A DNA stretch of 64,000 bases, taken from positions 15,376,001 through 15,440,000 of the forward strand of contig OX597842.1 of the NCBI GenBank assembly GCA_951406725.2, read 5' to 3'. Positions 2,500 to 62,794 of this stretch are shown piece after piece. How positions within the stretch are numbered: the first letter of the stretch is position 1; each line of letters starts with the position of its first letter. A program made the translations under genes and the position numbers. Below the pieces are notes generated by a model that worked only from the letters and a program-made list of their open reading frames with translations, ran no database searches and was not told where the DNA came from. Source of the DNA: Octopus vulgaris. Lineage: Eukaryota.

Positions 2500-4090
2500 C
2501 AGTAATGGTACCGAAATTCATTCTCTAGATTCCATCTTCAATGCCCATTCAATAATTATCAAGACAATTGTGTATACGTTTGATAATGATGGAATAGGGG
2601 TGAGGAAAGCTACATAAGGAGATCATAACCCCATGAAGGATCATTTCAATCTGGAGCTGAAGAGATCCAAATCAATCCATAAGATTATTGGCATCTGGTG
2701 ACAGAAGACGTGAAAACAAAATTGCATATGAAACTTGTGAGGAGTTTTGATACTCCAGGAGAAAAGTTTAGAAGATTGGAGAGGGCGAAGTTCATCTGCG
2801 ACAAAGTGAAACACAACCTTCGAGTGAGAAGATATTCACCCAAGATGTGCGCACAAACTGACGCGACAGCTGAGGTCTGGCTTCAGCTCACGAGAAAGCC
2901 AAAAGTGTCTAAGTGATAATTTTCAACTGCATGATCTCTGATGGTAAGAGGATGTTCCTTGTCACACAAGTGTAGTGAGACAAGTGTTTCCCATGGATGA
3001 GTTTGCGAAAAGGTTTTAGGATAAGGGCACTTGGCCTCATTCATCACCTGGTTTGAGCATCTGGCATAAACTGATCATAGAATAAGCTCGTGAGTAGCCC
3101 CACACTTACCTGGACGTTAAAATAGGACATTGATGAGCATTTCCACAAGAAATCTTGTGGTAAGGCAGGAAAAGGGTTGATAAAGTCTTTGGCAAACAAG
3201 GAGTAACTCATGATGCCTAAAAACCAGGGGTTTGGCCAGAATTCTTACTCAATTTTTCAAATATCACTTTAAAACCTTCCGTTTGGACTTTATTCCAGTA
3301 TTTCATGAGCTCCCAATCCTGAGCTATGTTAAAACAGAATTTCATCTTCGCCAATTCATTCATGATTATTCATGAGAGCTTGGAGAGGAACTCACATTTC
3401 GTCTTGCTCAAAATAGGGTCCATTTGTGTTAGAATAGCCGCTGATAGTTTTGTTACCTTTAAGTGATACTGAGACACAAAGTTCCGAAGTGGTATCTAAA
3501 CTTTGGACACTTTTTTCTGATATAATCGGTATCTGTACATCCATACACAAAAACTTATGACGATTAAAAGATAAACTTAGAAAACTAGAATAAAGATTTA
3601 AAAACGAGAAAAAATGATGGAATATAGTTGAATAATGGGAATTTGAATATTAGGTAAACGGATGTTTAGAAACAAGAACCTGATTACCTATGCATAAGAA
3701 GTAAGTAAAAAAGAAGCTCATTCATCCACACACCTACACTTTCACAAAAACGCATTCACACATACACTCAGAGAAAACTATGGAGGGTGTGCACGGGTGT
3801 TAGATTGATGCAGTCTAGGAAGAGAGATAGAAAAAAAGAAAGTTGGAGAAAATATTAACAATGTAGATATATGGGGAAATAGATGGTACGAACAAAAGCA
3901 ACCCAACTCACAGATATCCTAAATTCGGAAGGTTTTCGAAGGAACCGCGTTGAATATACGTGATATCATTGTCATTCAAATTCCTGTAACATAAAACGGA
4001 GTTCATAACAAACATATAGAAACGATTAGTGACAAAATGTTAAATATTATGACGAAAAGATTCGATATGATTAAGAAATTTAAATGTATA
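2500..4090. repeat. Exon-bearing duplicated unit, copy A (unidentified coding-like relic + intron + LRR exon)
   Basis: Near-identical to 13560-15225 and 15226-16580. Confidence 0.92.
3912..3983 (-). CDS. LRR exon 7 (72 nt): NLNDNDITYIQRGSFENLPNLGYL; gene probably continues beyond the left edge
   Basis: Acceptor ttttatgttacag, donor GTGAGTTG, 72 nt, phase 2-2. Confidence 0.92.
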
Positions 4091-4099
4091 TGATGATGA

Positions 4100-5330
4100 G
4101 AGGGACGGCGAGAAGGTAGAATATGAAGAGGAGGGGAGGAAGGAAGAGAAGAGAAGAAGACGGAAAATAACAAAAAAAAGAAGAAATAGAAGAGGAAAAA
4201 GAAGGAAAGTAGAGGAGATGTAGTAGAAGAAGAACAAGAAGAAAGGAGAGAATGAAGAGTTGAAGGAGGAAGAGTAGAAAAATAAGAACTAGACGAGACG
4301 AAGGAGTAGCAGAAGTAAAAGATGAAGATGAAGAAGAAGAAGAAGAAGAAGAAGAAGAAGAAGAAGAAGAGGCAACAAGAAGAAGATGACAAAGAAGAAG
4401 GAGAGAAAGAAAAAGAAGAGCAGAAGGAAAACAACAAAATAAATTGCGAAAGGAAAAAGAGGCGAAAGAAGACGATGACAACAAAAGGAAAGGGAAGAAG
4501 AAGAAGCAGCAGGAGCAGCAGCAGCAGCAGAAGAAGGAGGAGGAAGAGGAGGAGGAGAAGAAGAAGTAGAAGAAGAAGAAGAACAACAACAACAACAAAA
4601 GTGAAGAAGGACAGGGGGTTGTGAATGAGAATGAAGAGTAGGAAAGAACAAGTTGAAGAAGATTAAGAAAGAGAAGAAAGACAGAGAAGGAGGAGGAGGA
4701 GAAAAGAGAAGAAGAGAAGCAAGATAGGTATATAGAGTAGAAAAAGAACATGGACAACAAAGACAACAACAATATTAAAGAACAAGTCATGCAGAAGAAG
4801 AAGAAAGGAAATGAAAAATACAAGAGTAACAGGAAGAAAATTTATGAAAACAAAAAGGAAAAATATAGAGAAGAAGAAGAAGAAGAAGAAGAAGAAGAAG
4901 AAGAAGAAGAAGAAGAAGAAGAAGAATAAGAAGGAGAACAGCAACAACAACAACAACAACAACAACAACAACGGCAATGAGTAGAGGAGGCAAGAAATGT
5001 AAAAGCCGGATAAAAAGAACAATGAGGAAGAGGAAGCGGGGAGAGATAAATTGATAGATGCAGAGGAGAGTGTGAAGAAAATGAAATTGAAGAATAAGAG
5101 AAAGGATGGATATGAAGAATCAGAAGGAAAAATGTAGACGAGTAAAAAGACAAGGAAGAAGGAGAAGAACAACAACGACAACAAGTATAAGTAGAAGTAT
5201 AAGTAGGAGTAGGAGGAGGAGAAGAAGCAAAGAAGAAGAAAAAGAATAAGATGAGGAGGAGCGAGAAGAAGGATGAAGAAGGAGGATGGGGACGATGAAG
5301 AAGAAGAAGCAGAAATAGAAGTCTAGAATG
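4100..5330. repeat. Purine-rich (GAA/GGA/CAA)n low-complexity region
   Basis: Compound trinucleotide microsatellites; source of the poly-S/F/L/K/R pseudo-ORFs. Confidence 0.95.
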
Positions 5331-5626
5331 TTAACCAATACACAAACAGACACACACAACCAAAGCAGGAGAAAAAAAAGATTTATGAAGGGGAAGTGGT
5401 TAGACATAAATTAACATACGCAGAAGGACATAGGGTAGGAAATGAAAGAAAGAATAAGAGGAAGAATATGACGAATAAGAAGAAAAAAGAAGTCAAAGAC
5501 GTTAATCAGTGTTGACGGAGGAATAAATACCGTACATGATATAGAAACCGAATTACAGATACATTTTGCTACACTCGCATACACGCATCCATGCACCAAC
5601 TGATACAAACACGCACAGAGACACCA

Positions 5627-5665
<39 letters not shown>

Positions 5666-6755
5666 CATAATTATTTGCACCACATTTTCTCTTCAATTGT
5701 CTCAAACTGTTATATCAGAAATCTCACGAATTTCTCCCCGCAACATTCGCAGTGATTCACAAACAATAACACAGTTCGGATAGAGAAAGATTGTAAACAT
5801 ACACAGAAATACACCCGCATGCACTCAATGGGTTTCGTCTTGTATCGTGCATTAACATATCCCATATTTTTAGAAATGGACCCACACTCACACTCTCACA
5901 TTTACAAAAAATAAAACTGAACTTTGGATGTATAGACAAGGGAGGTTAAAATGAAGGATAGGCACATATTACAAATTTAGAAAGATAACGTAATGAAATA
6001 TTAAAGAAGATTTAAATATAAGAGGTTTCAGAGGAATAGAGAATTCAGCGGATGATAGAGAAAGAGAAAGTGATATGAAGAAATCATGAAAGAGCATTTT
6101 TACATAAAGGAGAAGAAGAAGAAGAAGAAGGAGGAGGAGGAGGAAGTGGAGGATAGAGGAAATGTAAATAATGTAAATAGTGAGATGGTAGTAGTTATGA
6201 TATTGATAGTAATGAATATGGCAAAGGTGAAAATAAATGGTGGTACTATCCATAACGAAGAGATTATGATGATGACGACGAGAGTGATGTTGTTAATGCT
6301 GATTGTTATGATAATGATTGAGGATTAGCATTTCAATGGTGAATATGAATATGATATTGAGGATGATGACGATGATGGTAATGTATTTATCGTCCACGAT
6401 CAGAATGGATTTCAAGATATTGTATCTCTATCGTGGTGCTATTTGGTAATAAATGATCTCGATGATGAAGATGGCGACGATGAACTTGACGATGTTTATG
6501 AGTGAGAAATGTAACAATGAAGATGAGAATAATGAGTCTGATGAGGACAGAGAGGAAGACGTCCATAGTTATCACGGTGGCAATGGAGGTGAATTGAATA
6601 GAGAGTTTGGAGGAATAAGAGACTTCAGCTGATGATGGAGAAAGATAAAATGTTATGAAGAACGTACGGAAGGAAATTTTACACACACGAGAAATAAAGT
6701 AGAAGGAGGCGGAAGAGGAGAAGGTGATGAAGAAGAAGAAGAAAGAAGGAGCATT

Positions 6756-6897
6756 AGAAGAAGAAGAAGAAGAAGAAGAAGAAGAAGAAGAAGAAGAAGA
6801 AGAAGAAGAAGAAGAAGAAGAAGAAGAAGAAGAAGAAGAAGAAGAAGAAGAAGAAGAAGAAGAAGAAGAAGAAGAAGAAGAAGAAGAAGAAGAAGAA
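6756..6897. repeat. Pure (GAA)n tract, >45 units
   Basis: Seen directly. Confidence 0.97.
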
Positions 6898-6908
6898 AAG
6901 AAGTAGAT

Positions 6909-6980
6909 ATATATCTTAAACTGGACAAATTTCGGAAGGTGTCTCCCTTGATTTCCTTAATATCATTAGAAGACAAATAC
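6909..6980 (-). pseudogene. LRR exon lacking a donor (YLSSNDIKEIKGDTFRNLSSLRYI)
   Basis: Acceptor ttttgtgttccag and an open 24-aa LRR, but it runs into atctacttc and the (TTC)n tract with no GT. Either a real deletion or a local assembly collapse. Confidence 0.75.
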
Positions 6981-7052
6981 CTGGAACACAAAATGGAGTT
7001 AAGAAGCAATTTTATGAGACATTTAGGAAAAAAGTTTGGTTAAACAATTAGA

Positions 7053-8937
7053 TTTTTTGCGCACCGTGCCCGTAAGGTGCAGCTCTATCTAAAATACTCC
7101 GTGTCACGTTGAAAGGTCGGTCTTCTTTTAATTCCCAGGCATACTTTGCCAAGCTGGTCTTCATCCTACTTTCGGGGTTTCCGAAGGAATTTTTATGCGA
7201 ATAAAATCGGGTTTTGAAAGAATTTTCAGAAGCCCCGGTACAAGTTCTATATTAGCGTGAGCCTTCTATCTGCACCTTGGCTCTATACACGATTCCTTTC
7301 TCCAGACATTTTCCTTCCAACGGACAGGAGGTTCCATCATTTCAATTATAATTTTTAAAAAGAGAATAGGCACTATGATTATTAGCAGTTATCCTACTGT
7401 TGTGTTGGTTAAAAAAAAAGAGGCGAAGTGCACGGTGCACATAAAAGACCCATCAAATCTGATTTATGCCTGCTAGAAAAATATTTTATTTCATTCCAGG
7501 ACAATAACTCTTTAAATCAAAGAAGCGAACTCTTGAATTCCTGCAGACACGCAACTGAATTTAAAATGTCGGTTAGCGATATACCATATGGATAGTGTAT
7601 ATTTTATTGGTTCTTGGACTAGTTTGATTTATGACTACATGATTTATTTCGCATCGCAAAGTTATTGTATATATTTCGAGATATTTCTCAAGAAAAATCT
7701 TCGACTGTTATACGTAAATATTATTTTCTTGTTTAAGTTTCTACATTTATTTTATTTCATTGTATTTTTATAAACCCATTTTAATCGCTTAATTTATAGA
7801 TAATTCGATTTAGAGTGTTCTAATTTGCATATCTTTTATTCGAATTTTATTATTATGCACTCAGCAATTTTTTTTTAAATGTTGTTTAAATATATACGTC
7901 AGGACGTAGAGATGCTTTTATGTGGATATTTGTATTGTTGGCATGCATCTATGTATATGTGTAGGTAAGCGTGTATGTTTATAATTGTGCACATACATAC
8001 ATGGATGTATATGTATGCACGTGTTCACTTAGATTTGTGCAGATGTATATTTACGCACTTTCTTCCATATATTTATAAATGTGATCTGATATGTGTATTT
8101 ATGCTAATATACACTTTTGTATAAACATGTATACGTACTTTTATTTTGTGTGCGTTCGTTGCACATATTCAGCCACCTATTTTTCTTTCTTCCTTCTTTT
8201 CCTTTCCTTACGAAGGTATTTTTCTTTCCCCATTCGTTATTTGTATACAGTCCTTTAACTTTTCGCTCCTCCTCCCTCCTCCCACTCACCACTTTCTCTC
8301 GCTAACCGTTATATCTAAGATCCTTTATTTTCTTTTTCTTTCCCCCTCTCTGCGTTTTAAAATTCACTTCTCATCAAGATTGTCTGTCATAACTTCTATA
8401 TGTATACACCAAGTGATTTTTGCATGCGAGTATGATTGCGTACATATGTATACATGTGTATATGTATATGTGTGTATATATTTACGTCTTATATATGTCT
8501 GTATATGTATGTAGTCTGTGTGCATCCATCTGTGTATTTTGATGTATATATGTATATTAATGGTTAAATATCGCTTTATATTGTTGTAAAATATTTCTCT
8601 AATGTAGTGTGAAAATTTTAATGTATTAATTGTATTAATTGTATTATATTTCGTATATAATCATTTGCAATATGTATTTTGAATCAGCTCTTCAATTTAA
8701 GGTTTTCTTTGACTTTTATAATAGGATGAATTTATATTGAATTCATTTTTTATTTTGTTTAGTTTGTTCATTGCATGCATAAGACCGTTGATTGAAAGGA
8801 CCAATGAAGCAAATCCATTTTTAAAAGTGTATCATTTAACTAGATTTTATCATATGGTTATTTCTGTTCTATTTTAAGAAAACGGTCCTACGGGAACGTG
8901 AAAGTCCGAGTAACAGCTTTTGGCATATTTCTGCTGC

Positions 8938-8940
<3 letters not shown>
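7053..8940. mobile_element. Penelope-like element remnant with an inverted GIY-YIG segment
   Basis: Minus strand 7053-7330: CPLEGKCLEKGIVYRAKV...GASENSFKTRFYSHKNSF...TSLAKYAWELK. Plus strand ~7455-7570: DLCLLEKYFI...LNQRSELLNSCRH (PLE C-terminus), then an AT-rich tail ending in (TA)n. Confidence 0.8.
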
Positions 8941-8993
<53 letters not shown>

Positions 8994-9092
8994 GCATAAC
9001 TTGCACTACACTTTTCCCTTCAATTGTTATACACTGATATATCTGAATTCTCAAGAATTGCCCTCTACAACATTCGCAGTGATTCACAAGCA

Positions 9093-9132
9093 ACCATCTT
9101 CGATTTCCATGATATCATTAGAATTCAAGTAC
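9093..9132 (-). pseudogene. Truncated LRR exon (YLNSNDIMEIEDG...)
   Basis: Acceptor ttttttgtcccag is intact. After ~13 codons the exon is fused to intron-cassette sequence (caacattcgcagtgattcac, also at 5741-5760). The 3' half and donor are deleted, and an in-frame stop follows. Confidence 0.8.
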
Positions 9133-9275
9133 CTGGGACAAAAAATGAGTTACGAAGCACTTTTATGAGACATTTATGACAGAACTTTGGTTAAAAATTT
9201 ACATGAAGGAAGAGAAGAACAGCAAAGAAGAAGAAAATGAAGATGAAGAAGAAGAAAATAAAAAAGAAAGATAAG

Positions 9276-11725
9276 TGTTGTGTGGACGCCTCCAGACGAT
9301 GAAGTGGATTAGCCCAATACGTAGATAGAGAGGGAGACGTCTAGACGTCAGAGAGGAGAAGGGTTGAGTAGAGGTCATCCGAACGTGCGATATAATAGTG
9401 GCGACGAGGTTTCGAATAGTAATGAAAAGGAAGAGTTACTGAAAGCAGTCGTAAATCAACGAGAGTAGCAGCAGCATCTACGGTTGTTAACAGAATTGTT
9501 ACTGCAGTCGAGAAATACGACCGAATCATTTTCAGCAGATGGTTTTGCAAATTCCATCGAAGAATTTCACTACAATCCGGATGAAGGAACTACTTTTGCT
9601 GCATATTACAGACGATAGGAAGACATGTTCCGAGAGGAATGCAAGGGATGGCCTTGTGAAAGGAAGGTAAGGCTCCTTTTCCGAAAGCTTGCGACTCCGG
9701 AACACGAAAGATTTTGTAACTTTATTTTGCTGAGAAAGCCCGCGGGGTTGTGTTTTGATGAAGCCATAATTATTTTGACTAATACTTTTAGCGAGTAAAA
9801 ACATTCGATGAGAATGTTTAAATTTAAAGAAAAACGAGTCCGATGATTTTTTTAACATGTTCCGGTATGCTTAATAAGGCTTGCGAAAGGTTTAAGCAGG
9901 AAGAATTAACGCCAAATATGTTCAAGTGCCTAATATTCGTTAAAGGGCTAGTGGCAACGGAAGACGCGGAAATTAGAAAAAGAATATTATCAAAGTTGAA
10001 TCAAGATGTGAAACTCACTTTGCAGAAAGGGGCTGAGGAAGGCCAACAAATAATAAACCTTCGAGATGATACAAGAAAGTATGGTGCTATGGTTTCGGAG
10101 ATCGACATTTGAAGAAAGATTGCTCCTTTAAAGATAAAACCTGTTTTAAGTGTGGTAAAATTTGACATATACTGACGAAATGCCGGTCAAAGAAAATGGT
10201 AAAACTGAAGAAAGTCTACTCAACAAAAGTAAATTATATCAGACAAAATCGAAAATTTGTGTTGGTAGAAATAAATGGGTTTCAGACCAAAATGCAATTA
10301 GATTCCGGTTCGGACGTATCGATAATAAATACAGCAACATGGAGTAAGATAGGCAGACCGTTGTATAAAACAAAAACTACTAGAATAGCCTACGGTGTGT
10401 CAGCGGAACGAGTTCAATTCTTGGGCGAAATTTCACCAGAAATAAAACTTAAAAACAGGACGCGGAAATGTAAACTAATGGTATCTAAGAATATATTGAA
10501 TCTGTTTGGCACAGATTTAATACAAGGATTCGACCTGTAGGATCTATCCCTGAATACATTATGTAACAAGGTGAATGCGTCACAGACCGTGTCAGAGAAA
10601 GCATGGGAACAAATGAAATTAAAATTGAAAAAGATGTACCCTGTTATTTAAAAAATTAAAGTAAAGTTTGAGTTGAAAGAAGATGCGGTGCCGGTGTTCA
10701 AACGGAAAAGAAATGTACCTTTTGCAGCGTTAAACCAGGCTGAAAACAAATAAAAAGATTGGAAGACATGGAAGTTATTGAAAAAGTAGATTACTGTGAG
10801 TGGGCGGCTCCTACAGTATATATAAAAAAGAAGAACAACGAGGTAAGAGTATGTGCAGACTGGTCTTAATGATTGTTTAAAAAATTACACTTATCCGCTT
10901 CCAAACCCAGAAGACATATTTGCTAAGTGCAGTGGCGGGAACATGTTTTCCAAGCTGGATTTGTCAGAGGCCTAATTCCAATTACTGTCAGATGAAGAAT
11001 GTGCTAAAGTATTAACAATCAATACTCGCAAATATGACAACATTTTTGCAGGTGTATACAATAACACCGAATCCAAATACAGAGTTGGGTAGGTCACCAG
11101 CAGATATGCTGCTTTCCAGAAAAATTCGTTCTATTTTTGACAAATGGTTGCCGGGCAGGAAACAGAAATAGAAAATTCGGGAAGAAAAACGAAATTTTTT
11201 AACATAGGTGACAAAGTGTATTTTAAAATATATAGAAACGGATACAGGACTGCGAACAAGGAAGTATAACTGGACATCTGGGTAACGTGATGTACACGGT
11301 AAAAGGACCAAAATATGAACACAGAAGGCATTTAAACCAATTAAAAATATATATACCAAAAGCCAAGAGAGGCGAGAAGAACCAATGGATTTATGGTATG
11401 ATTTGTTCCAGGTCCCAGGACTACAAACAAAAGTGTTCGAGGTCCCAGAACCACAAGCAAAAGCAGAACCGACACGTAGGTCGAACAGGAAGAGAAAACC
11501 TACAGAAATGATGGAAATTAACGCTAAGAGAAAAAGATATGCCAGTTTCTCACCGAGGAAATAAAATTGATAAATTTGGGTTTAAAAACTCAAAAGAGGC
11601 AGGTGTTGTGCGGACACCTCCAGACGATGAAGTAGAAAAGCCCAATACGTAGATAGAGAGGAAGAACTCTAGACGTCAGAGAAGTGAAGGGTTGAGTAGA
11701 GGTCATCCGAACGTGCAACATAACA
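9276..11725 (+). mobile_element. Internally deleted Ty3/Gypsy (Mag/K02A2.6-like) LTR retrotransposon with 122-bp LTRs
   Basis: LTRs 9276-9397 and 11604-11725 (TGTTG...AACA). PBS gtggcgacgagg, PPT aaaagaggcagg, TSD ataag/agaag. Gag (FHYNPDEGTTF), protease QLDSGSDVSII, and RT start (WAAPTV...VRVCAD, FSKLDLSEA) fused to the integrase C-terminus. Confidence 0.92.
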
Positions 11726-12131
11726 AGAAGAAAAAGAGAAACGATAGAGATGTCAATAATGTAGATGATACCCAATTACACATATATTTTGATACAATCG
11801 CAAATCCGCATCTATACAGAAACAAACACACACGCACACAACTACACACACACCGGCCCCCTTCCCCCAAGCCATACATATAATATACGTAGTTTACTCA
11901 AAGCAAGTGTGTGAACATACACAGTTATATACACATGCATGCACTAAATGGTTTCGCCTTGCATCATGAACCCACACATCCCGTATTTCAGAAATGGACC
12001 CACACGCACGCTCTCAAATTGATGAACAATAAAACCTTTCTTTGGATGGACGGGTAAGGGATGGGCACATAATACAGATTAGGAAAGATATCGTCAATGA
12101 AATACTACAGAAGGAAACAGATTCAACTTAT

Positions 12132-12205
12132 AGATATGTAAACCTACACAAATCTCGGAGGGTGTCATATTTGATTTCCTTGATGTCATTAGAATCCCCA
12201 AGTGT
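12132..12205 (-). pseudogene. Decayed LRR exon (HL..SNDIKEIKYDTLRDLCRFTYL)
   Basis: 74 nt (2-nt insertion) and donor mutated to ATAAGTTG. The acceptor and cassette flanks are retained. Confidence 0.85.
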
Positions 12206-12569
12206 CTGGAACATCAAATTGAGTTAAAAAGGAATTTTATAGAACATTTCTGATAGAGTTTGTGGTAAGCAATTAGATGAAAGAAGAGATGTACAGTAAT
12301 TCAAATTGGTGATTAGTTTGATTACGAAGACGTTGTCGATAATGATGATGATGATGAATCGTATGAGAGAGGAGAAGAATGAGTGCGATGGGGAGGAAGA
12401 AAACTGTTGTGATAGTGATGGTAGGTGTTGTGATATTTATAGTGATGAATATGATAAGGCAGAGGTAAAAATACATAGTGATACTATCCATAACGAAGAG
12501 ATGATGATGATGAGGAGGACGAGAGTGATGTTGTTAATGCTGATTGTTATGATAATAATATAATGAAAT

Positions 12570-12806
12570 TATTGTATACAGTGCTCAGGTGCACCACAAC
12601 TTGTCAGAGTATATGCAGTAATGTACAAATGCCTGGAAAGCGAACAATGCATGAGTCAGATACATGCTTGTGTGTGTATGGAGGGGAGAAAATCAAGTGC
12701 AGTGTTGGAGAATCTCAGAAAGCATGGAAGTTTTGAAGGATGCAGCGCTCCGACAACTAACAACTGATGCCGGCAGTTTGTTCCATGCTTCAGCAAATCT
12801 CAGCGT
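12570..12806 (-). mobile_element. 5'-truncated CR1-type LINE 3' end
   Basis: EAWNKLPASVVSCRSAASFKTSM (CR1 C-terminal motif). Interrupts sequence that is contiguous in the paralogous cassette at ~6310. Confidence 0.75.
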
Positions 12807-13478
12807 AATGATTGGGGATTAGCATTTAAATGGTGAATATGAATCTGATACTGAGGATGATGACGATGATGGTAATGTGTCTGTTATCTATGATCAGGAT
12901 GCCCAGGAGATTGTGTATTCCTATCGTGGTGCTTTTTGGTAATCAATGATAACGATGATGACGAGGGTGACGATAAAGTTGACGATGTTTATGTTTGAGA
13001 AAGGTAACAACGAAGATGAGAATAATGACGGTGATGAGGATGGAGAGGGAGACGTCAATAATTATCACGGCAGTAATTGTGGCGAATTAAATTGTAGAGA
13101 TTTTAGAGGAAAAGAGAACTCAGCGGATGATTGAGATTGAGAAACTCTTATGAAGAACTCAAGAAAGAGATTTTTACACGCACGAAACGAAGAAGAAGAA
13201 TAGAAGAAGGAGGAGGAGGCTGAAGTATAGGTGTAGGGGGGGAAGAAGATGAAAAAGAAGATGAAGGAGAAAATAAAGAGAAAGAGAAGAAAACGTGAAA
13301 CAAGTATTAATATTCAATGACGATAGAGATTTCAATAATGTAGATGATACCCAGATCTAATTACACATATATTTTGATATACTCGAATACCCGATTCTAA
13401 ACACAAACAAACAGATAAGCACACAACCGGACGCACCACTGCTCACACACACACACACCTACACACACACACACACTT

Positions 13479-13514
<36 letters not shown>

Positions 13515-15032
13515 GTATAAAATCCGTGGTGTGGTCAGAGTAAGTTTGAGAAGATACACAGTAATGGTACCGAAATTCATTCTCTAGATTCCATCTTCGA
13601 ATGCCCATTCAATAATTATCAAGACAATTGTGTGTACGTTTGAGAATGATGGAATAGTGGAGAGGAAAGCTACATAAAGAGGTCATAACCCCATGAAGGA
13701 TCATTTCAATCTGGAGCTGAAGAGATCGATCAGAAGAGATCCAAATCAATCCATAAGATTATTGGCATCTGGGGACAGAAGATGTGAAAATGAAATCGCG
13801 TATGAAACTTGTGAGGAGTCTTGATAATCCAGGACCAAAGTTTAGAAGATTGGAGAGGGCGAAGTTCATCTGCGACAAAGAAAAACACAGCTTTCGAGAG
13901 ATATTTCACATAGATGAGAAGATATTCAGCCAAGATATGCACAGAAATAGACGCGACAGCTGAGTTCTGGCTTCAGCTCAGGAGAAAGTCAAAAGTGTCA
14001 TTTGAGGTGTAAAAACCTGATTAACTGATACTTTTCAACTGCATGATCTCTGATGTCTGATGGGAAGGGAATGTTCCTTGTCACACAAGTGTAGCGAGAC
14101 AAATGTTTCACATGGATGAGTTTGCGAAAAGGTTTTAGGATAAGGGCACTTGGCCTCATTCATCACCTGGTTTGAGCATCTGGCATGAACTGTTCATAAA
14201 ATAAGCTCGTGAGTAGCCCCACACTTACCTGGACGTTAAAATAGGACATTGATGAGCATTTCCATAAGAAATCTTGTGGTAAGGCAGGAAAAGGGTTGAT
14301 AAAGTCTTTGGAAAACAAGGAGTAGCTGATGATGCCTAAAAGCCAGAGGTTTGGCCAGAATTCTTACTCAATCTTTCAAATAAAACTTTAAAACTTTCCA
14401 TTTGAAATTTATTCCAATGTTCCATGAGCTCCCAATCCTTAGCTATGTTAAAACATAGAATTTCATCTTCACCAATTCATTCATGATTATTCATGAGAGC
14501 TTGGAGAGGAACTCACATTTCGTCTTGCTCAAAATAGGGTCCATTTGTGTTAGAAAAGCCGCTGATAGTTCTGTTACCTTTAAGTAATACTGAAACACAA
14601 CGTTCCGAAGCTGTATCAAAAATCTTGACACTTTTTTCTGATATACTCGGTATCTGTACATCCATACACAAAAACTTATGACGATTAAAAGATAAACTTA
14701 GAAAACTAGAATAAAGATTTAAAAACGAGAAAAAATGATGGAATATAGTTGAATGATGAGAATTTGAATATTAGGTAAACGGATGTTTAGAAACAAGAAC
14801 ATGATTACCTATGCATAAGAAGTAAGTAAAAAAGAAGCTCATTCATCCACACACCTACACTTTCACAAACACGCATTCACACATACACTCAGAGAAAACT
14901 ATGGAGAGAGTGCACGGGTGTTAGATAGATGCACTCTAGAAAGAGAGATAGAAAAAAAGAAAGTTGGAGAAAATATTAACAATGTAGATATATGGGGAAA
15001 TAGACGGTAAGAACAAAAGCGACCCAACTCAC

Positions 15033-15104
15033 AGTTGTTCTAAATTCGGAAGGTTTTCGAAGGAACCGCGTTGAATATACTTTATATTATTGCTATACAA
15101 ATAT
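15033..15104 (-). CDS. LRR exon 6 (72 nt): YLYSNNIKYIQRGSFENLPNLEQL
   Basis: Acceptor ttttatgttacag, donor GTGAGTTG, 72 nt, phase 2-2. Paralogous to the exons at 16384 and 3912. Confidence 0.92.
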
Positions 15105-16383
15105 CTGTAACATAAAACGGATTTCATAACAAACATATAGAAAAGATTAGTGACAAAATGTTAAATATTATGGCTAAAAAAAATAGATATAATTAAGAAA
15201 TTTAAATGGAGATGATGATTAGAGAGAGGGCGAAGTCCATCTGCGAAAAAGTGAAACACAACCTTCGTGTGAGAAGATATTCACCCAGGATATGTATACA
15301 AACTGACGCGACTACTGAGTTCTGACTTCAGCTCACGAGAAAGCCAAAAGTGTAATTTTAGAAGCAAAAACCTGACTAAGGGATAATTTTCAACTGCCTG
15401 ATCTCTGATGTTAAGAGGATGTTCCTTGTCACACAAGTGTAGTGAGACAAATGTTTCCCATGGATGAGTTTGCGAAAAGATTTTAGGATAAGGACACTTG
15501 GCCTCATTCATCACCTGGTTTGCGCATCTGGCATTAACTGATGATAAAATACGCTCGTGAGTAGCCCCACACTTACCTGGACGTGGGAATAGGACATTGA
15601 TGAGAATTTTAACAAGGAATCTTGTGGTAAGGCAGGAAAAGGGTTGATAATGTCTTTGTCAAACAAGGAGTAACTCATGATGCCTAAACAACCAGAGGTT
15701 TATCCAGAATTCTTACTCAATCTTTCAGACATAACTTTAAAACCTTCCATTTGAAATTTATTCCAATGTTCCATGAGCTCCCAATCCTGAGCTATGTTAA
15801 AACATAGAATTTCCTGTTCGCCAATTCATTCATGATTATTCATGAGAGCTTGGAGAGGAACTCACATTTCGTCTTGCTCAAAATAGGGTCCATTTGTGTT
15901 AGAAAAGCCGCTGATAGTTCTGTTACCTTTAAGTGATACTGAGACACATCGTTCCGAAGTTGTATGTAAAATTTGGAAACTTATTTTCTGATATACTCGG
16001 TGTCTGTACATCCATACACAAAAACTTATGAAGATTAAAAGATAAACTTAGAAAACTAGAATAACGATTTAAAAACGAGAAAAAATGATGGAATATAGTT
16101 GAATAATGAGAATTTGAATATTAGGTAAACGGATGTTTAGAAACAAGTACATGATTACCTATGCATAAGAAGTAAGTAAAAAAAGAAGCTCATTCATCCA
16201 CACACCTACACTTTCACAAACACGCATTCACACATACACTCAGAGAAAACTATGGAGAGAGTGCACGGGTGTTAGATAGATGCACTCTAGAAAGAGAGAT
16301 AGAAAAAAACAAAGTTGGAGAAGATATTAACAATGTAGATATATGGGGAAATAGATGGTAAGAACAAAAGCGACCCAACTCAC

Positions 16384-16455
16384 AGTATTTCTAATTTCGG
16401 AAGATTTTCGAAGGTACCGCGTTGAATATACGTGATATTATTCAAACTCAAAAAT
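16384..16455 (-). CDS. LRR exon 5 (72 nt): FLSLNNITYIQRGTFENLPKLEIL
   Basis: Acceptor ttttatgttacag, donor GTGAGTTG, 72 nt, phase 2-2. Confidence 0.92.
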
Positions 16456-17303
16456 CTGTAACATAAAACGGATTTCATAACAAACATATAGAAAAGATTA
16501 GTGACAAAATGTTCAATATTATGGCGAAAAAAATTGATATAATTAAGAAATTTAAATGGAGATGATGATTAGAGAGAGAGAGAGAAGTCCATCTGCGACA
16601 AAGTGAAACACAACCTTCGAGTGAGGAGATATTCACCCAGGATATGCACAAAAACTGACGCGACATCTGAGTTCTGGCTTCAACTCACAAGAAAGCCGAA
16701 AGTGTAATTTTAGGGGCAAAAACCTAAGTGATAATTTTCAACTGCCTGATCTCTGATTGTAAGAGGATGTTCCTTGTCACACAAGTGTAGTGAGACAAAT
16801 GTTTCCCATGGATGAGTTTGCGAAAAGGGTTTAGGATAAGGACATTTGGCCTCATTCATCACCTGGTTTGAGCCCTTTAGACGTCAGCATCTGGCACTTA
16901 TCCGTCAGCATCTGGCATGCCTTTTTACCTTTTTTTTAAAACCAAAATACAGGTGCAATCTGTTTTTCTTTCCTAACGCGCCATCGTCTGCCACTCTTGC
17001 ACTCTCTCTCTCTCTTATTGACGTTTGGTGATGCTCCTCACTCGCATCCCTTTTCTCACAAATGAGTGTCGCCGTGTTTTGTTTTGCTTTCTCCATCTTC
17101 ATAGATTAAACGCAAACAAATTTGACTGGAAAACAAAATCAACCGGTTCGTCCCCACAAAATGGCAGAGAAAGCAGAAAAATAAACTCACCACTCGACAG
17201 CAATTTCCACGACAGTAAAAACTTGATGGGTGAAAATACACGTATTATGTGTTTTTATTTACAAATTTCATAATCATGTCAAGCGAGGCTTGTCAGTTTG
17301 ACG

Positions 17304-21903: not shown

Positions 21904-21975
21904 AGTGAACTTAAACTCAAAAGATTTTGGAATGTTTCTGCCTTGACTTCCTTGATATCATTACTTTCCAAATAT
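21904..21975 (-). CDS. LRR exon 4 (72 nt): YLESNDIKEVKAETFQNLLSLSSL
   Basis: Acceptor ttattttacag, donor GTAAGTTG, 72 nt, phase 2-2. Confidence 0.92.
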
Positions 21976-23015: not shown

Positions 23016-23087
23016 AGATATGATAACCTGGAAAGATTACTGAAGGTTCCTATTTTGATTTCCTGGAGTTTATTTTTCCACAAAAGC
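23016..23087 (-). CDS. LRR exon 3 (72 nt): LLWKNKLQEIKIGTFSNLSRLSYL
   Basis: Acceptor ttttatgttccag, donor GTAAGTTG, 72 nt, phase 2-2. Confidence 0.92.
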
Positions 23088-23199: not shown

Positions 23200-24290
23200 A
23201 TGATGAACGTGATGATGATGATGATGATGATGGTGATAATGTTGCGGAGAAGTGATTAATATGATGATTAGGTAGAAGTGAAGAAAATATGGCGTTAGCT
23301 TTGATGACGAAGATGTTATGTTGTTGAATGGGGGTGATGTTGTTAATGTTGATTACTCTTTTAATGATGGTGATTAGCATGTTTATAGTGATAAGGAGTA
23401 TGACATTGATGCTGATGATGTTGGTGGTGATATTTCTCTTGGTGTTGATGACGATGATGTTGAAGATGTTGCATCTGATCGCCATGTTTCATGGTAATGA
23501 ATGATGTTGATAATGAAGAGAACGATGAAGAACTTGATGATGTTGAAGATTGAGGAAGATGAAAATGAAGACAACAATGATGACAGTGATGACAAGAAGG
23601 ACGAAGACGTCAATAATGAGAGTGGTGGGATTGGGGGTGATAAAAATTTTAGAGATATTAAGTGAATGGGGAAACTTGTAAATTATGAAGAAAGCATGTA
23701 AAACAGAAAGTGAAAAGCACAGCAAACGGAAAGGTAACGAGAGAAGAGGAAGGAGAAGAAGAACAAGAACATGAAGAACAAGAGGAAGGAGAGGAAGGGT
23801 AGGAAGAATAAGAAAAAGAATAAGAGGAAGAAGAAGGAGAAGAAGAAGAAGAAGAAGAGAAAGAAGGAGAAGAGAAAGAAGGAGAAGAGAAAGAAGGAGA
23901 AGGGGAAGAAGAAAAAGAAGTGGAAGAAGAAAAAGAAGAAGGGGAAGAAGAAGGAGAGGAAGGAAAATAGGAAGAAAGAGAGAAGTAGGAGGAGAAGAAG
24001 AAGAAGAGGAAGTAGAAGAGGAAGGATAAGAGGAAGAAAGAGAGGAGGTAGAATGAGAAGAAGAAGAAGAAGAAGAAGTGGAGGAGAAGGAGGAGGAAGA
24101 AGAAGAAGAAGAAGAGGAAGTAGGGGAAGAACAGCAACAACAAAAGAAGAGGAAGGAGAAAAAGAATGGGAAGAAGAGGAAGTGGAAGCAGACGAAGTAG
24201 AAGAAGAAGAATGAGAGGAAGTAGAAGGAGAAGAAGAAGAGGAAGAAGAAGAAAAAGAAGAGGGAGAAGCGGAAGAAGAAGATAACAAAA
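23200..24290. repeat. (GAT)n and (GAA/GGA)n low-complexity region
   Basis: Seen directly. Confidence 0.9.
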
Positions 24291-24382
24291 GAATGTGTTT
24301 AAAAATTAGAGAATGAATTATGTAGTTCTAAATATACTTGCATTACGGAAAGTCTGGAATGTCAATCAGTTTTGATCTAGAG

Positions 24383-27432: not shown

Positions 27433-27504
27433 AGAGTTTTTAAACTGGAGAGATTTTGGAAAGTTTTTTCGTTGATTGCTTGGATATCGTTTTGAGCCAA
27501 ATTC
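27433..27504 (-). CDS. LRR exon 2 (72 nt): NLAQNDIQAINEKTFQNLSSLKTL
   Basis: Acceptor ttttattctccag, donor GTAAGTTG, 72 nt, phase 2-2. Confidence 0.93.
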
Positions 27505-27578
27505 CTGGAGAATAAAATTGTATTAAGAAGAATATTTACGGTAAGAAAAAGAAAAAGATGATGAGGAAGAAGTAGATA

Positions 27579-27622
<44 letters not shown>

Positions 27623-27834
27623 GAACAAGAAGAAAAAGAAGAAGAACAAGAAGAAGGAAAAGAAGAAGGAGGGGAAGTACAAGAAGATGAAGAAGAATAA
27701 GAAGGAGGAGGAGGCGAGGGAGAAGAAGAAGAAGAAGAAGAAGAAGGAAGAAGAAGAAGAACAAGAAGAAAAAGAAGGGAAAGAAGGAGAAGAGGACCAA
27801 CAAGTAGGAGATACTTCCAGAGAAGGAAACAAAC

Positions 27835-39333: not shown

Positions 39334-39392
39334 TAATCAGAGCATGAAATTCAGAAAGTATCCTCCTAGACAAATGATATTTTTTGATAGTA

Positions 39393-42300
39393 AAATGAAG
39401 TTTGGCTTGCTAATTAACTTATAGGAAGATATAATTGTTGTGATGCTATCACTTTTTATTGGTCAATTCATGAGTTCTTTTGTCTCTATTAGTCCATTTC
39501 GTTATACCTAGTTTTATTACATTTTCATGCTGTTATATATCTATAATTATAGACATATCGTTATAACTCACTAATTACAATAATAATTATATATATAACT
39601 GATGCTACCGATTCACATATTAATGATAATTAAGAGCTCAGGCATTCAAAGCTGATATTATTTCTGTGTGCATTCTTGTAATGATGAGTTTTAAGGTTGG
39701 CGCTTTTGATTAATTTTTTGAATGATGGGCCATATTTTGGGCCACAACCGATTGTGCCCTTTGTTTATCGCCGCAAGAATCGATGCCAGATGGAGAAATA
39801 ATTATAGTTATAAGTCATTTGCATTATTCGGTAGCTTCATAACATCTATGTTAGCTAAGTCTAAAAGCGTTAGCGGTAATACATTTCGGAAACTACATCG
39901 AATTTCCTTTGTCTAGCTTCGTATCATTGTCACCATTGGTCAATGAATGACTTTCTCACTGAGACTACACCGCTGTCATATTGTTTCCCACGGCTTCGCC
40001 TGTAACCCTAGATTGAATGGAAGATGGGTGATACGCTGAGCCAAAGGGCAGCTGTGTTTGCGCCAACAAAGTATTTCCTTATTTGACGTAATCCCTATAT
40101 TTAAAGGCTGTTCCATTGTCCACCGCCTGGTAACCTACCGAATAGTAGATTCTCATTCAAGATTTACACATTCACACACACATTCATTGCCATCCTTAAT
40201 TCGCGAGTCGAGCGAGTATGTCTTGGCAACATATCTAATGCTTTTACTAATTGCTTCAGGTGCCAATGTATTTCCGAGCAGACATAGATACACTTTTATA
40301 TCTCCAACACTAACCCTGACCCAGCTGTCACATCCAACACCTGACTGGGAAACATTTACAACTAAGTAGACTGAATCAACCTTGATCAACGTCGCAAACA
40401 CCGAGCTTAGTTCATGAACTGAACCAATCACATTATGATTGAGCAGCGACATGCTAATCACTGTGTCATATCTTTCACACACGCTGCGGTACTACAAGTA
40501 GAATCTGACACCAACAGCTCAAATGCAGCCCAAATCAATTTTCCCCTCTCATCAACAAGTCACAGGATCCACGCTCAAATCATATCCAGTGCTATGGCAG
40601 TTTTAACACTCAAAACATCTCAGCTCAGATTTAATCTATTGGCTGAAGTAAAGTCACAGAGATGGGAACAGATTGCATTAAATGATAGAATATCATAAAT
40701 GCCTGACAAGAAATTCAAAGTTGTCTCTTGAATAAAGTTCAACATCTTTTTACACAAAAATATCTAAAAATCAAATGATTCTGGCAGCCATAAAGAATAC
40801 TCTTCTGTTTTCTTTTGATCATGAAGGAAGTCACTTTTGAAGAAGAACATCGCTCTAGGAGAAAGTAGATCCCGTGTATATCTAGGACTGAATTTAAAAG
40901 ACATATTTTTTCATTTTAGAACCAGAAAATATTTCAATCCTAACAACTCCCACTTTTTGATGCTTAAGTAACCAAAGTAAGACCACTCTTTGTATTAACA
41001 TTCCATCAGTTATATATTAACCGCTATGTTTAGTTCTTCATCCTCAGAACATCGGCTTCTGGAATGCCCTCCATGTTCTTGTCTTCTTTCCGGTGGGAAT
41101 TTATCTGTAACAATTTAAACGGAGCATTACCATCATCTCTCTCACCCATATCACACAACCAGCGAAATTAATGATCTCTACTCCTTCTTCAAAACGCAGA
41201 AAGTAAAAACAAGTGGGATTTGAACTTAAAATGCAAAGAGCTAGAAAATGTCCATACCAGACCCAGTCCCACATCCCTATATTTGTTCTAGTTCAGTGGC
41301 CTCTTTAAGTACGCAAAACTCCGTAATTTAAGGACGTCCTCGGCTGGATTTTAAGTCAGAATACCGAATGCTAGATTAAATACCACAAGGTGTCATTCAA
41401 CTCGATGACCTACAGGTTCGTCAAATTTTTGACTAAATTATCAATTAAAATTTCTAAATAATATATATCGTATATTCACCATCTGCATATATACCGATTT
41501 CTATTTTATTCAGACAATCCCAAATGTGTAGAGAAGCAAGTGAATTCGCTTGAATCAATCGAATATAGTATTGGCATATTTTATTTAAACTGGAAACTTG
41601 AAATATTTAAAGCCATATAACTTTTTCTACTGTAGACACAAGACCAGAAACTTTGGTGTAAGGAGAATTGATTAGATCGACCCTAGTACGCATCAATTAC
41701 TTAATTTATCGATCCCGAAATGATGAAAGGCAAAGTCGACTTCGGCGGAATTTGAAGTCAGAACGATTAATGCAATATAATACAAATCCTTTAATCTGAA
41801 ATAATACTCAGGAAGAGTCGAACCCTCTCTGTACAATCTAGGATACTTTTCAGTTGAAAAGATCGAGAGATCAGCTAAATCTTAAGCTTAAAGTATTTTG
41901 TAGAATTATAACTAATGTGTTTTTATATCTAAAAAGGTATCGGGTTCATGATATCAACCTAAATTTTACCGATGACGTCTTTAATAAAAATAAGTTTCAT
42001 AATACCGGACTATTTTACATGTTTCATTTACGTAATTTCAGAGTCAGGCAATTTAAGCGGATCTCGTAATTATCTGCAGTTTAATTAGTCTAACAATATC
42101 ACTTTTAATTGTAAACGTAATATAGACATGCAATAATTAACTGTCATTCTGTTACAAAATCAGCTAATATCAATATAACTGTAACAATAAACATCTTCTA
42201 TTTAGGAAATGATGTTGCGAAATGCGGCACCCGGGGGGGGGGGGGGGGCAGACCAGCAAGCCAATTTGATTTAAGTGGTGGAAGTAGGTATATCCGGCCG

Positions 42301-42565
42301 GATTATTTGCGTAATGTGGTTCTTCGTTGCCAGGTTCATTTCGACTCCTCACATGTCATCATTACACCGATGTCTTCGTTGACAAATCCACACTGTATGC
42401 CATTCTTCGTCGTCTGACCTCACACCAATTGTTCACATCACCCAACTCTCATCTCTAACTCTTCCCATCGCCCAACACTTATCCGATTTTTAATTACCTA
42501 CAAGGGTCTAACATAGACGGACAATACGCACATTTGGGGATAATAAACATATGAAAGAACAGAAG
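39393..42565. repeat. Segmental duplication, copy 1
   Basis: 39393-41388 matches 45386-47400; 41444-42565 matches 48383-49289 plus 51500-51605. Confidence 0.92.
41620..41766 (-). mobile_element. Octopod SINE (Nin/Deu-domain-like) fragment; paralog at ~48570-48690
   Basis: gattagatcgaccctagtacg...tttatcgatcccgaaatgatgaaaggcaaagtcgac. Confidence 0.75.
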
Positions 42566-43248
42566 AATAAGAAAAAGAAGAAAAAGAAGAAAAAGAAGAA
42601 GAAGAAGAAGAAGAAGAAGAAGAAGAAGAAGAAGAAGAAGAAGAAGAAGAAGAAAAATGAGGAAGAGCAGAACGATAAGATGTAGAGTAAGAGAAAGAAA
42701 AACAAGAATGGTAGGACAAAAACAACATCAAATCAACAACATTAAAACAATAATAGAGGAAGTAGAAGAAGAAAACGGAGACGAAGAATATGTAGATGGA
42801 GATAATAACTAATATGATGAATCGAAGGAAATGAAGATGAAGTGGAAGTAGAAGTCAAAGAAGAGGAGGAAGGAGATGAAGAATAAGTCGGAGAAGAAAA
42901 GAAGAAGAAAGGAACAAGAATAAGTCCAAGAAGAATTTTATAAATGAGTTTTATAAATGACGTAGTTCTAAATGTACAAAAGCCATCGGTATTGAAGCAT
43001 GTTATTTAGCGTAAACACCAGACCTAATATCCATACCGAATGATAGACACAGGTGAATAGGGATTTGTATGTTTATAGTGATGATGAACATGGTATTGAT
43101 GCTGATGATGTTGGTGGTGAAGTTTCTCTTGTCGATGATGATGAACATATAATACCGTGTGAAAGGAAAATGACGAGAGTGAGCGAAATTACAAACATGG
43201 AAATATATCGACAATGATATACTATAAATGAAGATTGATTTAACTTAC

Positions 43249-43320
43249 AGTTCAGTTAAATTGGTCAAATATTGGAAGGTTTCTGGTTTGATTTCAGTTA
43301 AATGATTATTGTTCAAATTC
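43249..43320 (-). CDS. LRR exon 1 (72 nt): NLNNNHLTEIKPETFQYLTNLTEL
   Basis: Acceptor ttttatgttccag and donor GTAAGTTA. Exactly 72 nt, phase 2-2, matches LxLxxNxLxxIxxxxFxxLxxLxxL. Confidence 0.93.
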
Positions 43321-43938
43321 CTGGAACATAAAATTGAGTCAAGATGAAACTTTATGGAACAGGTTTTTGGAAGTATATAACATATTTCGAGTAAGGAATT
43401 AAACTATGGAAATCAGGAAGAGTTGATTACGGTTCTGTTGAAATTGATAATGACGATGATGATGATGTTCAAGTGGGTGCAACTAACTGCGGTTGTCTAT
43501 GGTAATGAATAAAGTTGATGATGAACCTGACAATGTTGACGGCTGAGAGAAAGAATCATGTTGCGGAGAATAATCTCAGTAATAATGATGGGAACGAAGA
43601 ATGTTTCGGGGACCACTACCCTGGGATGATCATGAAGCAAGCAAGCGTGTGTTTATGCACGCACGAGTGTATGTAAGCATGTGTGTATGTATGTGTTTTT
43701 CTGTATGCACGTGTGTGTTACCTCAATAGTTGAACATGAAGAACGAAGAATATTACATCTTCATAATTTATTTGTTGAGGCATTTTCTTCATATTACATT
43801 CATTGGTTAATCAGCCCAAGATTTCCTCAGGATGCTAAAAAGTATCTGCTCGGATTTGAAATCCCTATTCCATTACGTTACATATGTGTGTGTGTGTGTG
43901 GCTGTGTGTATATAGGTATGTATATGCATATGTATATA

Positions 43939-44826
43939 CGAGGGGATACACAAAAGTAACAGTAAATGTTCTCTGTAAGACAAACCCGTTGTAGTTCGGG
44001 TTTCCGTCGCTAAACTCCACTTGATGCGACTGTCAGGCATCAGTCCGCCAACCGGCGTTATCCGCTAGTGTTGTACTGCCGCGTAGTTCGTCTTTGTTTT
44101 GACGTGTTTCTGCTCAGTTCGTATGTTTTTTGCAATGGCTGGAACGAAGGAACATTGTGCTTCTGTGAAATTCTGTTTACTGCTGCTGAAAACTGCAGAT
44201 GAAACAATTTTCATGCATCCAATCACAAGGATGATGCAATGGGCAAAGCACAAGTTAATGAATGGTTTTCACGATTTAGGAATGGTCACTTGTCGCTTGA
44301 AAACCAACCTCATTCATGACAACCGTCGACCTCACGAACGTCATGAAAATTCATGATCTGATCCTGGAGGACCGTCACTGAGCAATTGATGAAATTTTTA
44401 AAATGTCGGTTTTGCCCTGGAGCTCCTGCCAATGAATTTTGTGCATGGAATTGTGAATGAAAAGCGTTCCAGCAAAATCTGTGCCTCGTTTGCTCACGGA
44501 ATGTCAAAAACAGTCACGGCGGAATGCGTGTCGTTAGCTAGAAGAACGGTTATGAGGTAATCCGAAAGTTTTTTCGAAGGTCATCACTGGTGACGAAAGC
44601 TGGTACTACGGAAGTTGAAGATGTGTAAGTGAGGAAAGAAAACGATGGGGGCATTAAAAAGCATCACTTCGGAATAGGTCCAACACGGATTCCAGGGGCT
44701 GAAAAGGCGCCTGGAACGATGCATTGATTAAAATGGAGAATACTTTGAACACAATAAATGTGTAAATATGTAAAACTAAGTGAATAATATATTTCAAAAT
44801 TACGGTTTCTTTTGGGCACCCCCTCG
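43939..44826 (+). mobile_element. Internally deleted mariner element
   Basis: TIRs cgagggg.tacacaaaagtaac / gtttcttttgggcacccctcg; EHCASVKFCLLLLKTADET and VITGDESWYYG motifs. Confidence 0.88.
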
Positions 44827-45385
44827 TTTGTATGTACACACAAGCGGCTAAGGCCGAGCTGCCCTGGGATTGTTAATACCTAAAATAGATATCATCTCAT
44901 CATTTCTTTATATTTTGGGTAAACCGTTGTTTAAAACATGCCAAGATGCCAAAAATCCTCAGTTTGTCTGTGAATATTAATTCACTGAGAATTGTAAATA
45001 CACAGAACATAAGAAAAAACTAAAATACAGTTTACCTTTATATTCATTTTTTCTGTGGTATATGTTTTTATAACATACGGTACACATTTTCAAAATATCT
45101 TTAAAGTAGTTGTTTTTCTAACAAGTAAACTTTTACAATGACTAACGTAGTGCTTGAATTATACAACGTTCATATTTCGCCCTTGGTTGCAGACAAGTGG
45201 TGAAGATCTGACATTTGATATTCATGATGTCGGCTGGCAAGCTAAGACTTCATAGATTTTATCTTACAGAATATGGTTTATTGTACTCTGTACCTTATAT
45301 ATCTTCGCCTTTGCAACTATACTTCAAACATAACAAGGTGTTCTACACCCACAACCCTTTAATTACTAGATTTATTTTGATTGTG

Positions 45386-45527
45386 AAATGATGTTAGGCT
45401 TGCTAATCATCATCTTGTAGGGAAGATCTAATTATTGTGTTGTTATCACTTTTCATTAGTCAATTCATGAGTTGTTTTTTCTTTATTGGTCCATTTCGGT
45501 AAACTAAGTTTTATTACACTTTCAAGC

Positions 45528-45570
<43 letters not shown>

Positions 45571-53769: not shown

Positions 53770-53951
53770 AAATTTTCAACATTTGGTGGAATGGGTTGCG
53801 GGATCGAAGTCAGTTGCCGAGATGAACAATCTATTCTTGTCTTAGAATTTTCACATTTGCATATGCTGCAAATGTCTGACGCCGCATGAGACTCCAAACA
53901 GAAACTCATAGAGAGTATCAACACAAACGTCAATTTCAATTGTTGGAACAT
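53770..53951 (-). CDS. First coding exon of an LRR protein: signal peptide plus cysteine-rich LRR N-terminal cap (LRRNT)
   Basis: MFQQLKLTFVLILSMSFCLESHA (signal-like) then SDICSICKCENSKTRIDCSSRQLTSIPQPIPPNVENL (CxxCxC...C...LTSIP..IP LRRNT). Acceptor ttttcttcttttacag lies 20 nt upstream of the ATG (exon 53770-53971). Donor TT|GTAAGTA is phase 2. Confidence 0.93.
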
Positions 53952-57740: not shown

Positions 57741-57793
<53 letters not shown>

Positions 57794-62793: not shown

Positions 62794-62794
62794 T

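Follow-up and report, generated by a model that had tools for sequence, protein, structure and literature searches.

Adhesion G-protein-coupled receptors (GPCRs) usually count as conserved receptors for adhesion and mechanosensing, and the vertebrate members ADGRA2/3 (GPR124/125) carry leucine-rich repeats (LRRs), an immunoglobulin (Ig) domain, HRM, GAIN and a seven-transmembrane (7TM) region, in that order. Here we describe an octopus gene, W, whose LRR exons lie on the minus strand of a 64,000-nucleotide stretch of Octopus vulgaris DNA (contig OX597842.1, G000:C29:15376001-15440000; hereafter the window). W shares the order LRR, HRM, GAIN, 7TM with ADGRA2/3, and its public protein model P0006 carries PF26588, a family named as the GAIN of ADGRA2/3 by the source for P0012; unlike ADGRA2/3, W has an LU-like cysteine-rich domain in place of Ig, and its family is multi-copy, variable and fast-evolving rather than conserved. 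Predicted ligand-facing residues of these receptors evolve at about eight times the rate of neutral DNA, which quite probably reflects positive selection for new binding surfaces against fast-changing foreign ligands.

Among octopus receptors, the available sections of Ritschard 2019 (PMC6408891) describe group 3, an octopus-specific expansion of adhesion GPCRs whose clustered genes are expressed in nerve cord, suckers, skin and gills, with LRR in 5 of 22 sequences and positive selection at the branch level. Group 3 and W are both octopus class B receptors with GPS and an adhesion 7TM, some with LRR, and W probably belongs to that group; unlike the present analysis, those sections describe no selected amino-acid site, no exon cassettes of a single repeat, no differences in repeat number and no swapped heads. 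In exon design, the brown-algal ROCO LRR-GTPases are alike, as far as the accessible text of Zambounis 2012 (PMC3341825) and Teng 2024 (PMC11378527) goes: they encode one LRR per 72-nt phase-2 exon, keep inactivated exons in introns, shuffle between near-identical paralogs and have four positively selected concave sites, yet they are Roc-COR GTPases with demonstrated alternative splicing, whereas the downstream exons of W encode GAIN, GPS and 7TM. The VLRs of jawless fish, in the excerpts of PMC5395774 and PMC13428168 used here, share the 24-residue LRR solenoid, variation on xxLxLxx and variable repeat number; they differ in being somatically assembled from incomplete germline genes with deaminase-driven conversion, whereas W is germline-complete, intron-split and 7TM-ended. 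Invertebrate GPCRs with an N-terminal LU domain place LU ahead of 7TM in molluscs as well, although the portion of PMC13719153 at hand makes no mention of octopus, cephalopods or LRR cassette variation. Our literature search, beyond whose reach most subscription journals lay, found no published account of the cassette design or of site-level selection. W is an LRR adhesion GPCR that combines germline cassette turnover with selection on a predicted binding face and, likely, head swapping.

Change at predicted ligand-facing positions

The minus strand of the window, scanned for the pattern AG-72 nt-GT, yielded seven intact LRR exons (at 43249, 27433, 23016, 21904, 16384, 15033 and 3912), and it also contains three broken ones (12126, 9061 and 6909). 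Every LRR exon opens with one base of a codon and closes with two, and the introns are all phase 2. The three exons singled out by the original prediction, which quoted their peptides and held that they diverge about five times more than their own introns, were found at 3912..3983, 15033..15104 and 16384..16455, each bounded by AG and GT; we refer to them as young cassettes A, B and C, respectively. Throughout, concave positions are the x residues of xxLxLxx, here codons 22, 23, 1, 3 and 4, a motif that the available part of PMC5395774 gives as the concave binding strand of VLRs.

Structurally, the AlphaFold model of P0006 is confident over the LRR part only (predicted local distance difference test, pLDDT, 86-93), and its strands 101-103 and 125-127 each combine position 23 and the leucine at the junction with the following exon's position 1. 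The variable positions are predicted to line the concave beta-sheet, with each strand split over an exon junction such that positions 22-23 would come from one exon and positions 1, 3 and 4 from the next. Because the intron splits the strand, any exon gain, loss or skip would create new strands in frame. Lamprey VLRs were the top Foldseek matches (root-mean-square deviation 1.2-1.3 A over 105 columns) and LRRC15, ALS and LGR4 outscore VLRs by sequence; the likeness to VLRs is one of common fold, not kinship.

Evolutionarily, the 19 close cassettes concentrate their amino-acid differences on this face, with a proportion of nonsynonymous differences (pN) of 0.376 at the 5 concave codons against 0.053 at the other 18, an exon synonymous value (pS) of 0.086, an intron diversity (pi) of 0.062 over 969 columns, and 22 of the 40 minimum mutations in 5 of 23 codons, the concave ones (p 5e-6). 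A fixed-site model of MG94 type on the intron tree gave a nonsynonymous-to-synonymous rate ratio (omega) of 8.1 for concave and 0.71 for other codons (p 5e-9 versus omega=1), with a silent rate 1.01 times the intron rate, and M2a was favored over M1a on the intron, near-intron and exon trees (p 4e-7, 2e-6 and 4e-6 on the three trees), flagging sites 1, 3, 4 and 23 on all three and sites 14 and 22 on the exon tree only. Among intron sites of the cassettes, incompatibility depends on distance (108 sites, p 0.001), from which it follows that the cassettes undergo recombination and that results obtained on trees call for a tree-free check.

Such a check comes from 32 disjoint closest paralogous pairs drawn from 82 exons of 15 regions, in which flanks differ at 3.8% (358/9339), silent sites at 3.9% (18/462), other replacement sites at 3.9% and concave replacement sites at 31%. 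The 27 pairs that do not involve W and its near-identical paralog G16 (C29, 16.1 Mb) give the same picture (flank 4.2%, silent 4.4%, other 4.4%, concave 33%). Between W and G16 themselves, which are colinear with 1500 differences in 89024 columns, six colinear LRR exon pairs hold 17 concave replacements in 72 sites where the flanks (88/4582) lead one to expect 1.4, next to 4 other replacements and 2 silent changes, against expectations of 4.9 and 1.6, respectively; 15 of the 16 changed concave codons are single-base. Six non-LRR exons of this pair differ at 8/913, and the three broken LRR exons at 2/217 compared with 24/432 for the intact ones (p 0.003), one of those two differences falling at position 3. 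Positive selection on the predicted concave positions, as originally proposed, is supported by the codon model and also by the pair tests that use no tree, the rate at silent sites being that of the introns. The proposed clustering, at positions predicted to be exposed, is seen well beyond the three exons, with the replacement excess confined to the x positions of xxLxLxx. Since the predicted ligand-facing residues outpace intron DNA about eightfold and silent sites do not, the family has likely been selected to recognize changing targets.

For the three young cassettes, formal alignment returned the manual counts exactly and left exon divergence above intron divergence: A and B differ at 11/72 exon and 12/371 adjacent intron nucleotides (4.7x, Fisher p 2.7e-4), B and C at 13/72 and 7/371 (9.6x), and A and C at 15/72 and 15/371 (5.2x). 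The 13 central codons said to be the same in A and B are indeed identical (codons 9-21), and 9 of the 11 A/B differences sit in amino-acid-changing codons as stated (7 of these 9 at positions 1, 3, 4, 22 and 23), with 1 silent and 1 at a junction base. The fivefold ratio itself holds for the 371-nt intron window and drops to 2.4-3.0x over the whole cassette intron (all aligned columns: A/B 2.4x, 81/1256, p 0.013; A/C 3.0x, 87/1265; B/C 2.7x, 87/1280). Because the ratio depends on the intron window chosen, the three exons are weaker evidence than "5x" implies; on their own they are suggestive, not decisive, and the family-wide tests carry the result.

Selection weighed against its alternatives

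Several observations weigh against the reading of positive selection or limit what the three exons show for it. The 371-nt intron window is a well-conserved part of the cassette intron, and the most divergent 72-nt intron windows hold 11, 13 and 15 differences, matching the exons. The codon models are our own code with naive empirical Bayes, recombination at the level detected can inflate site models, and position 22 is weak. Six G141/G151 pairs hold a single concave change, compared with 48 differences over 1781 nt of flank, 6 of the 32 pairs have no exon change at all, and five cassettes in paralogs G138 and G146 have identical exons though their introns differ by up to ~7%; because the G141/G151 pairs and these five cassettes show no diversification, selection is limited to some lineages. 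The multi-nucleotide codon changes of the original prediction do occur (34 of 76 changed concave codons), and a constant omega of 8 predicts only 17 (17/66); the excess is gone only with rates varying by pair, under which 28.5 of 76 are expected and no clear excess is left (p 0.12). In addition, one four-base change, carried at positions 3-4 by both cassette C and its counterpart in G16, looks like the sequence of other exon types at these positions, and different exon types have two 3' 14-mers in common.

Those multi-base codons and shared 14-mers also speak for short gene-conversion tracts from older LRR exon types that overwrite exon ends and supply most changes, with selection secondary, as do a codon 1-4 12-mer common to different exon types, the placement of variable codons at both exon ends adjoining conserved splice sequence, and the recombination detectable in introns. 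Conversion of this kind should carry silent differences along, since distant types differ at many silent sites, whereas silent divergence equals flank divergence (18/462 versus 358/9339); moreover, no 5' 16-mer is common to different exon types among the 82 exons, and of the 16 changes in the youngest pairs, 15 involve one base only. Matches to a donor context, with a donor pool that covers part of the receptor family, are no higher for multi-base changes (6/34) than for single-base ones (11/42). Import from distant exons as the main source is rejected on the 16-mer and donor-context results from this partial pool, and we regard a leading role for conversion as unlikely. A handful of changes, positions 3-4 of cassette C among them, may stem from short conversion, which does not explain the overall pattern. 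The originally raised alternative of imported LRR tracts is at most a minor source, though recombination among young cassettes is real. A related reading, that introns homogenized by conversion look young and the exons are merely older and only seemingly fast, would suit the patchy intron diversity (0.018-0.099 per 100 nt), the frequent incompatibility of upstream and downstream intron sites, and the fact that the 371-nt window of the earlier count is a low-divergence patch. Homogenization would nevertheless raise silent divergence and spread changes over the whole exon, neither of which is found, the 105-kb W/G16 baseline is uniform (1500/89024) with non-LRR and broken exons at or below it, and the silent scale of 1.0 largely refutes this reading, which we hold to be very improbable.

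That W and G16 might be two haplotypes, or an assembly mis-join, with the signal partly allelic or artefactual, we likewise consider highly improbable: a single contig carries both in the same orientation with 98.3% identity along at least 105 kb, as such a reading would have it, but their 3' halves differ, G144 has the type of G16 and G146/G138 that of W, proteins named O. sinensis include both types of GAIN exon (P0009, P0011), and the signal persists without the W/G16 pairs; were their differences allelic, selection would still be indicated. The least probable of these readings is targeted hypermutation or VLR-like somatic assembly acting on the LRR exons, to which the VLR-like fold and the same variable positions lend some appeal. 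The germline gene is complete with spliceosomal introns, which speaks against assembly, and hypermutation is hard to square with silent sites that are not raised in the assembly, broken exons that are unaffected, and single-base concave changes (13 transitions and 29 transversions, versus 172 and 186 in flanks) that have no deaminase-type bias. Positive selection on the predicted concave positions remains the reading that we prefer.

The receptor gene, its paralogs and the window

By its sequence, the host gene, which the original prediction did not name, is to be read as an intact, open octopus adhesion GPCR with one-repeat LRR exons. Its model has 24 coding exons and 1038 amino acids, no stop codon but the terminal one and internal junctions that without exception follow AG/GT, and runs through a signal peptide (judged by eye) with LRRNT, 8 LRR, LRRCT, an LU-like cysteine-rich domain, HRM, GAIN, GPS and 7TM. 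The first coding exon, with the predicted signal peptide and LRR N-terminal cap, lies at 53770..53951 (minus strand; tblastn of P0006 residues 9-78, 98.6%) and closes in phase 2 at a GT donor. Further downstream on this strand, LRR exons 1 (43249..43320, 72 nt, phase 2-2) and 2 (27433..27504) are without counterpart in G16, exon 3 (23016..23087) has 3 replacement changes relative to G16, and exon 4 (21904..21975) has 4, every one concave; exons 5 to 7 are the young cassettes C, B and A, of which C matches Pfam LRR_8 at E 0.001, under the curated cut-off, and B is contained in P0006. LRR exon 8 and 15 exons for LRRCT, LU-like, HRM, GAIN, GPS and 7TM continue on the minus strand outside the window (G000:C29:15375335-15326800). 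The rest of the W exons were placed by tblastn with homologues named Octopus vulgaris, O. sinensis and O. bimaculoides, as were the exons for which a regex motif search (LRRNT, LRRCT, Ig) found nothing real. P0006 matches W, yet contains 3 of the 8 LRR exons.

Functionally informative domains were identified on W or its paralogs. GPS (PF01825, E 3.3e-15) lies just before TM1, and a His-Leu-Thr in its exon is presumably the cleavage motif; the secretin-class 7TM (PF00002, 7tm_2) was found on two exons (E 5.6e-10 and 3.7e-4), in frame with the LRR exons. For GAIN, P0006, whose match to the GAIN exons is 100%, has a precomputed PF26588 hit, and PF16489 on paralog P0029 is under cut-off (E 0.0018); HRM was found on paralog P0007 (E 5e-7). 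No Ig family was found by profile search on P0017, P0028 or P0029, and the two exons between LRRCT and HRM are cysteine-rich and LU-like; the cysteine-rich domain of P0029 gave TM 0.60-0.74 against UPAR/Ly6 models, under the bar for naming a family, and a single-sequence fold of P0029 (mean pLDDT 38.7) was too poor for use. A stop directly after TM7 (L024:800-803, G000:C29:15326800) shortens the cytoplasmic tail of W, and O. sinensis P0003 stops at the same residue, whereas paralogs G146 and G138 continue further. In contigs of four presumed RNA runs, last-LRR-type exons (mostly 85-99% alike) are joined to LRRCT-like and LRR sequence, the loose ends of the joins being judged by eye, and in two of these runs such exons are without intron cover; these contigs show splicing in the receptor family, not of W itself, and over 14500-16700 four runs gave only short contigs, collapsed from many paralogs.

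The family is multi-copy and clustered. Scoring of 40 of 48 candidates gave 41 matches to the cassette, of which 19 reach at least 89%, in eight clusters, each with a last-7TM-exon match 49-82 kb downstream on its own strand; that 7TM exon has 58 matches among 83 scored candidates, and the GAIN exon's matches are all Octopus proteins (23/23). Exon order from GAIN to 7TM was checked in five genes (W, G16, G146, G138 and G144), leaving aside the C9 and C10 loci. W has 8 LRR exons, G16 has 6, G138 has 7 and G146 has at least 11. Stalk length varies too, with an HRM-containing module present three times in some paralogs (P0007, P0028; G000:C29:14425000-14452500). Relatives of W are labelled TLR5 or SLITRK4, and P0028, a long LRR array without 7TM, is labelled toll-like receptor 5. 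One young cassette (L015:4310-4381, G000:C29:14483310) has an open exon with the acceptor TG instead of AG. At G000:C29:14100001-14140000 and 15122001-15162000 there is a repeating three-exon unit with near-invariant exons, flanks differing by up to 8%, and no diversifying signal.

Over at least 105 kb, reaching from a point upstream of the first exon as far as the second GAIN exon, W and G16 are 97-98% alike; there the likeness stops, and their last 7TM exons share 50% protein identity. The 3' half of W is common to G146 and G138 (~3% apart) and that of G16 to G144, and from the last LRR to GAIN, W is 1.4% from G16 and 3.5% from G146. The simplest reading is that two signaling types have recently exchanged the recognition half, with an assembly error possible. 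The duplication spans G000:C29:15345600-15450318 and 16082426-16175500 and takes in the 5' half of the gene, the 3' halves being of two divergent types.

Around the young cassettes, self-BLAST and alignment delimit a tandem duplication unit of ~1.35 kb with exon C (15224..16587, minus strand), ~90% identical to the units of B (13559-15233) and A (2500-4115). The distal cassette intron (13570..14500, strand unassigned) is a decayed dispersed repeat, of which 65-80% identical pieces lie on many contigs and a further 298-nt piece at 16576-16873, upstream of exon C; it matched no Pfam family in six frames. That repeat copies beside the exon seeded every cassette duplication was borne out only in part, since the piece upstream of the first cassette is present in W, G16 and the C10 locus and in none of G146, G138, G144 and the two C9 loci. 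The broken LRR exons, on the minus strand, comprise one without a GT donor (6909..6980; identical in G16, with the acceptor lost there too), a truncated remnant (9061..9132; LRR-like in its first part only, then a stop) and a frameshifted remnant (12126..12205). Several LRR exons have long simple repeats rich in GAA next to them (4110-5330, 6650-6907, 23740-24300 and 27540-27830), one of these repeats beginning exactly at the missing donor of broken exon 6909. Between two broken exons, 9274-11724 is an LTR-retrotransposon-like remnant with ~115-nt direct repeats at its ends and a decayed frame (10166-10540) with what we take to be an aspartic-protease-like motif. Elsewhere in the window, an ~89% tandem duplication (39376-49211) surrounds LRR exon 43249, its second unit without the exon; a 469-aa open frame (49454-50863, minus strand) with a CCHC zinc-knuckle-like motif is probably an intronic retroelement ORF1 or gag; fragmented reverse-transcriptase-like frames lie at 60348-62962 (minus strand); and 56785-57806 is an inverted copy of 60184-61211 (93%).

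A proposed mechanism and its meaning

The LRR exons are symmetric 72-nt phase-2 one-repeat modules, their number varying between paralogs, and the shared 5' half is joined to two different GPS-7TM halves. We posit that gain, loss or skip of one exon would build two new strands with the frame kept. Cassettes would be duplicated and deleted through unequal germline crossing-over, and the receptor would pass ligand binding on via GAIN and 7TM. As to ligands, microbes or parasites have about an even chance in our view, cell-cell or neuronal identity is a possible though less likely class, and gametes or others are unlikely. A more far-reaching and doubtful proposal is that of an inherited VLR-like repertoire tied to G-protein signaling, in which dozens of adhesion GPCRs would have LRR heads that cassette gain, cassette loss and exon skipping rebuild, that selection on the binding face sharpens and that are swapped whole onto different GPS-7TM halves, giving each animal or cell distinct immune or self/non-self sensors.

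For the family, these results mean that its octopus adhesion GPCRs carry the evolutionary signature of immune-recognition receptors at named residues, a signature that an earlier family-level test missed, and that their variable part is largely hidden in annotation, as the missing LRR exons of P0006 and the labels of its relatives illustrate. Four or five selected positions, paired near-identical paralogs and a natural head swap constitute ready-made constructs for a ligand search, and they make testable how an invertebrate of a long-lived lineage, without adaptive immunity, diversifies recognition.

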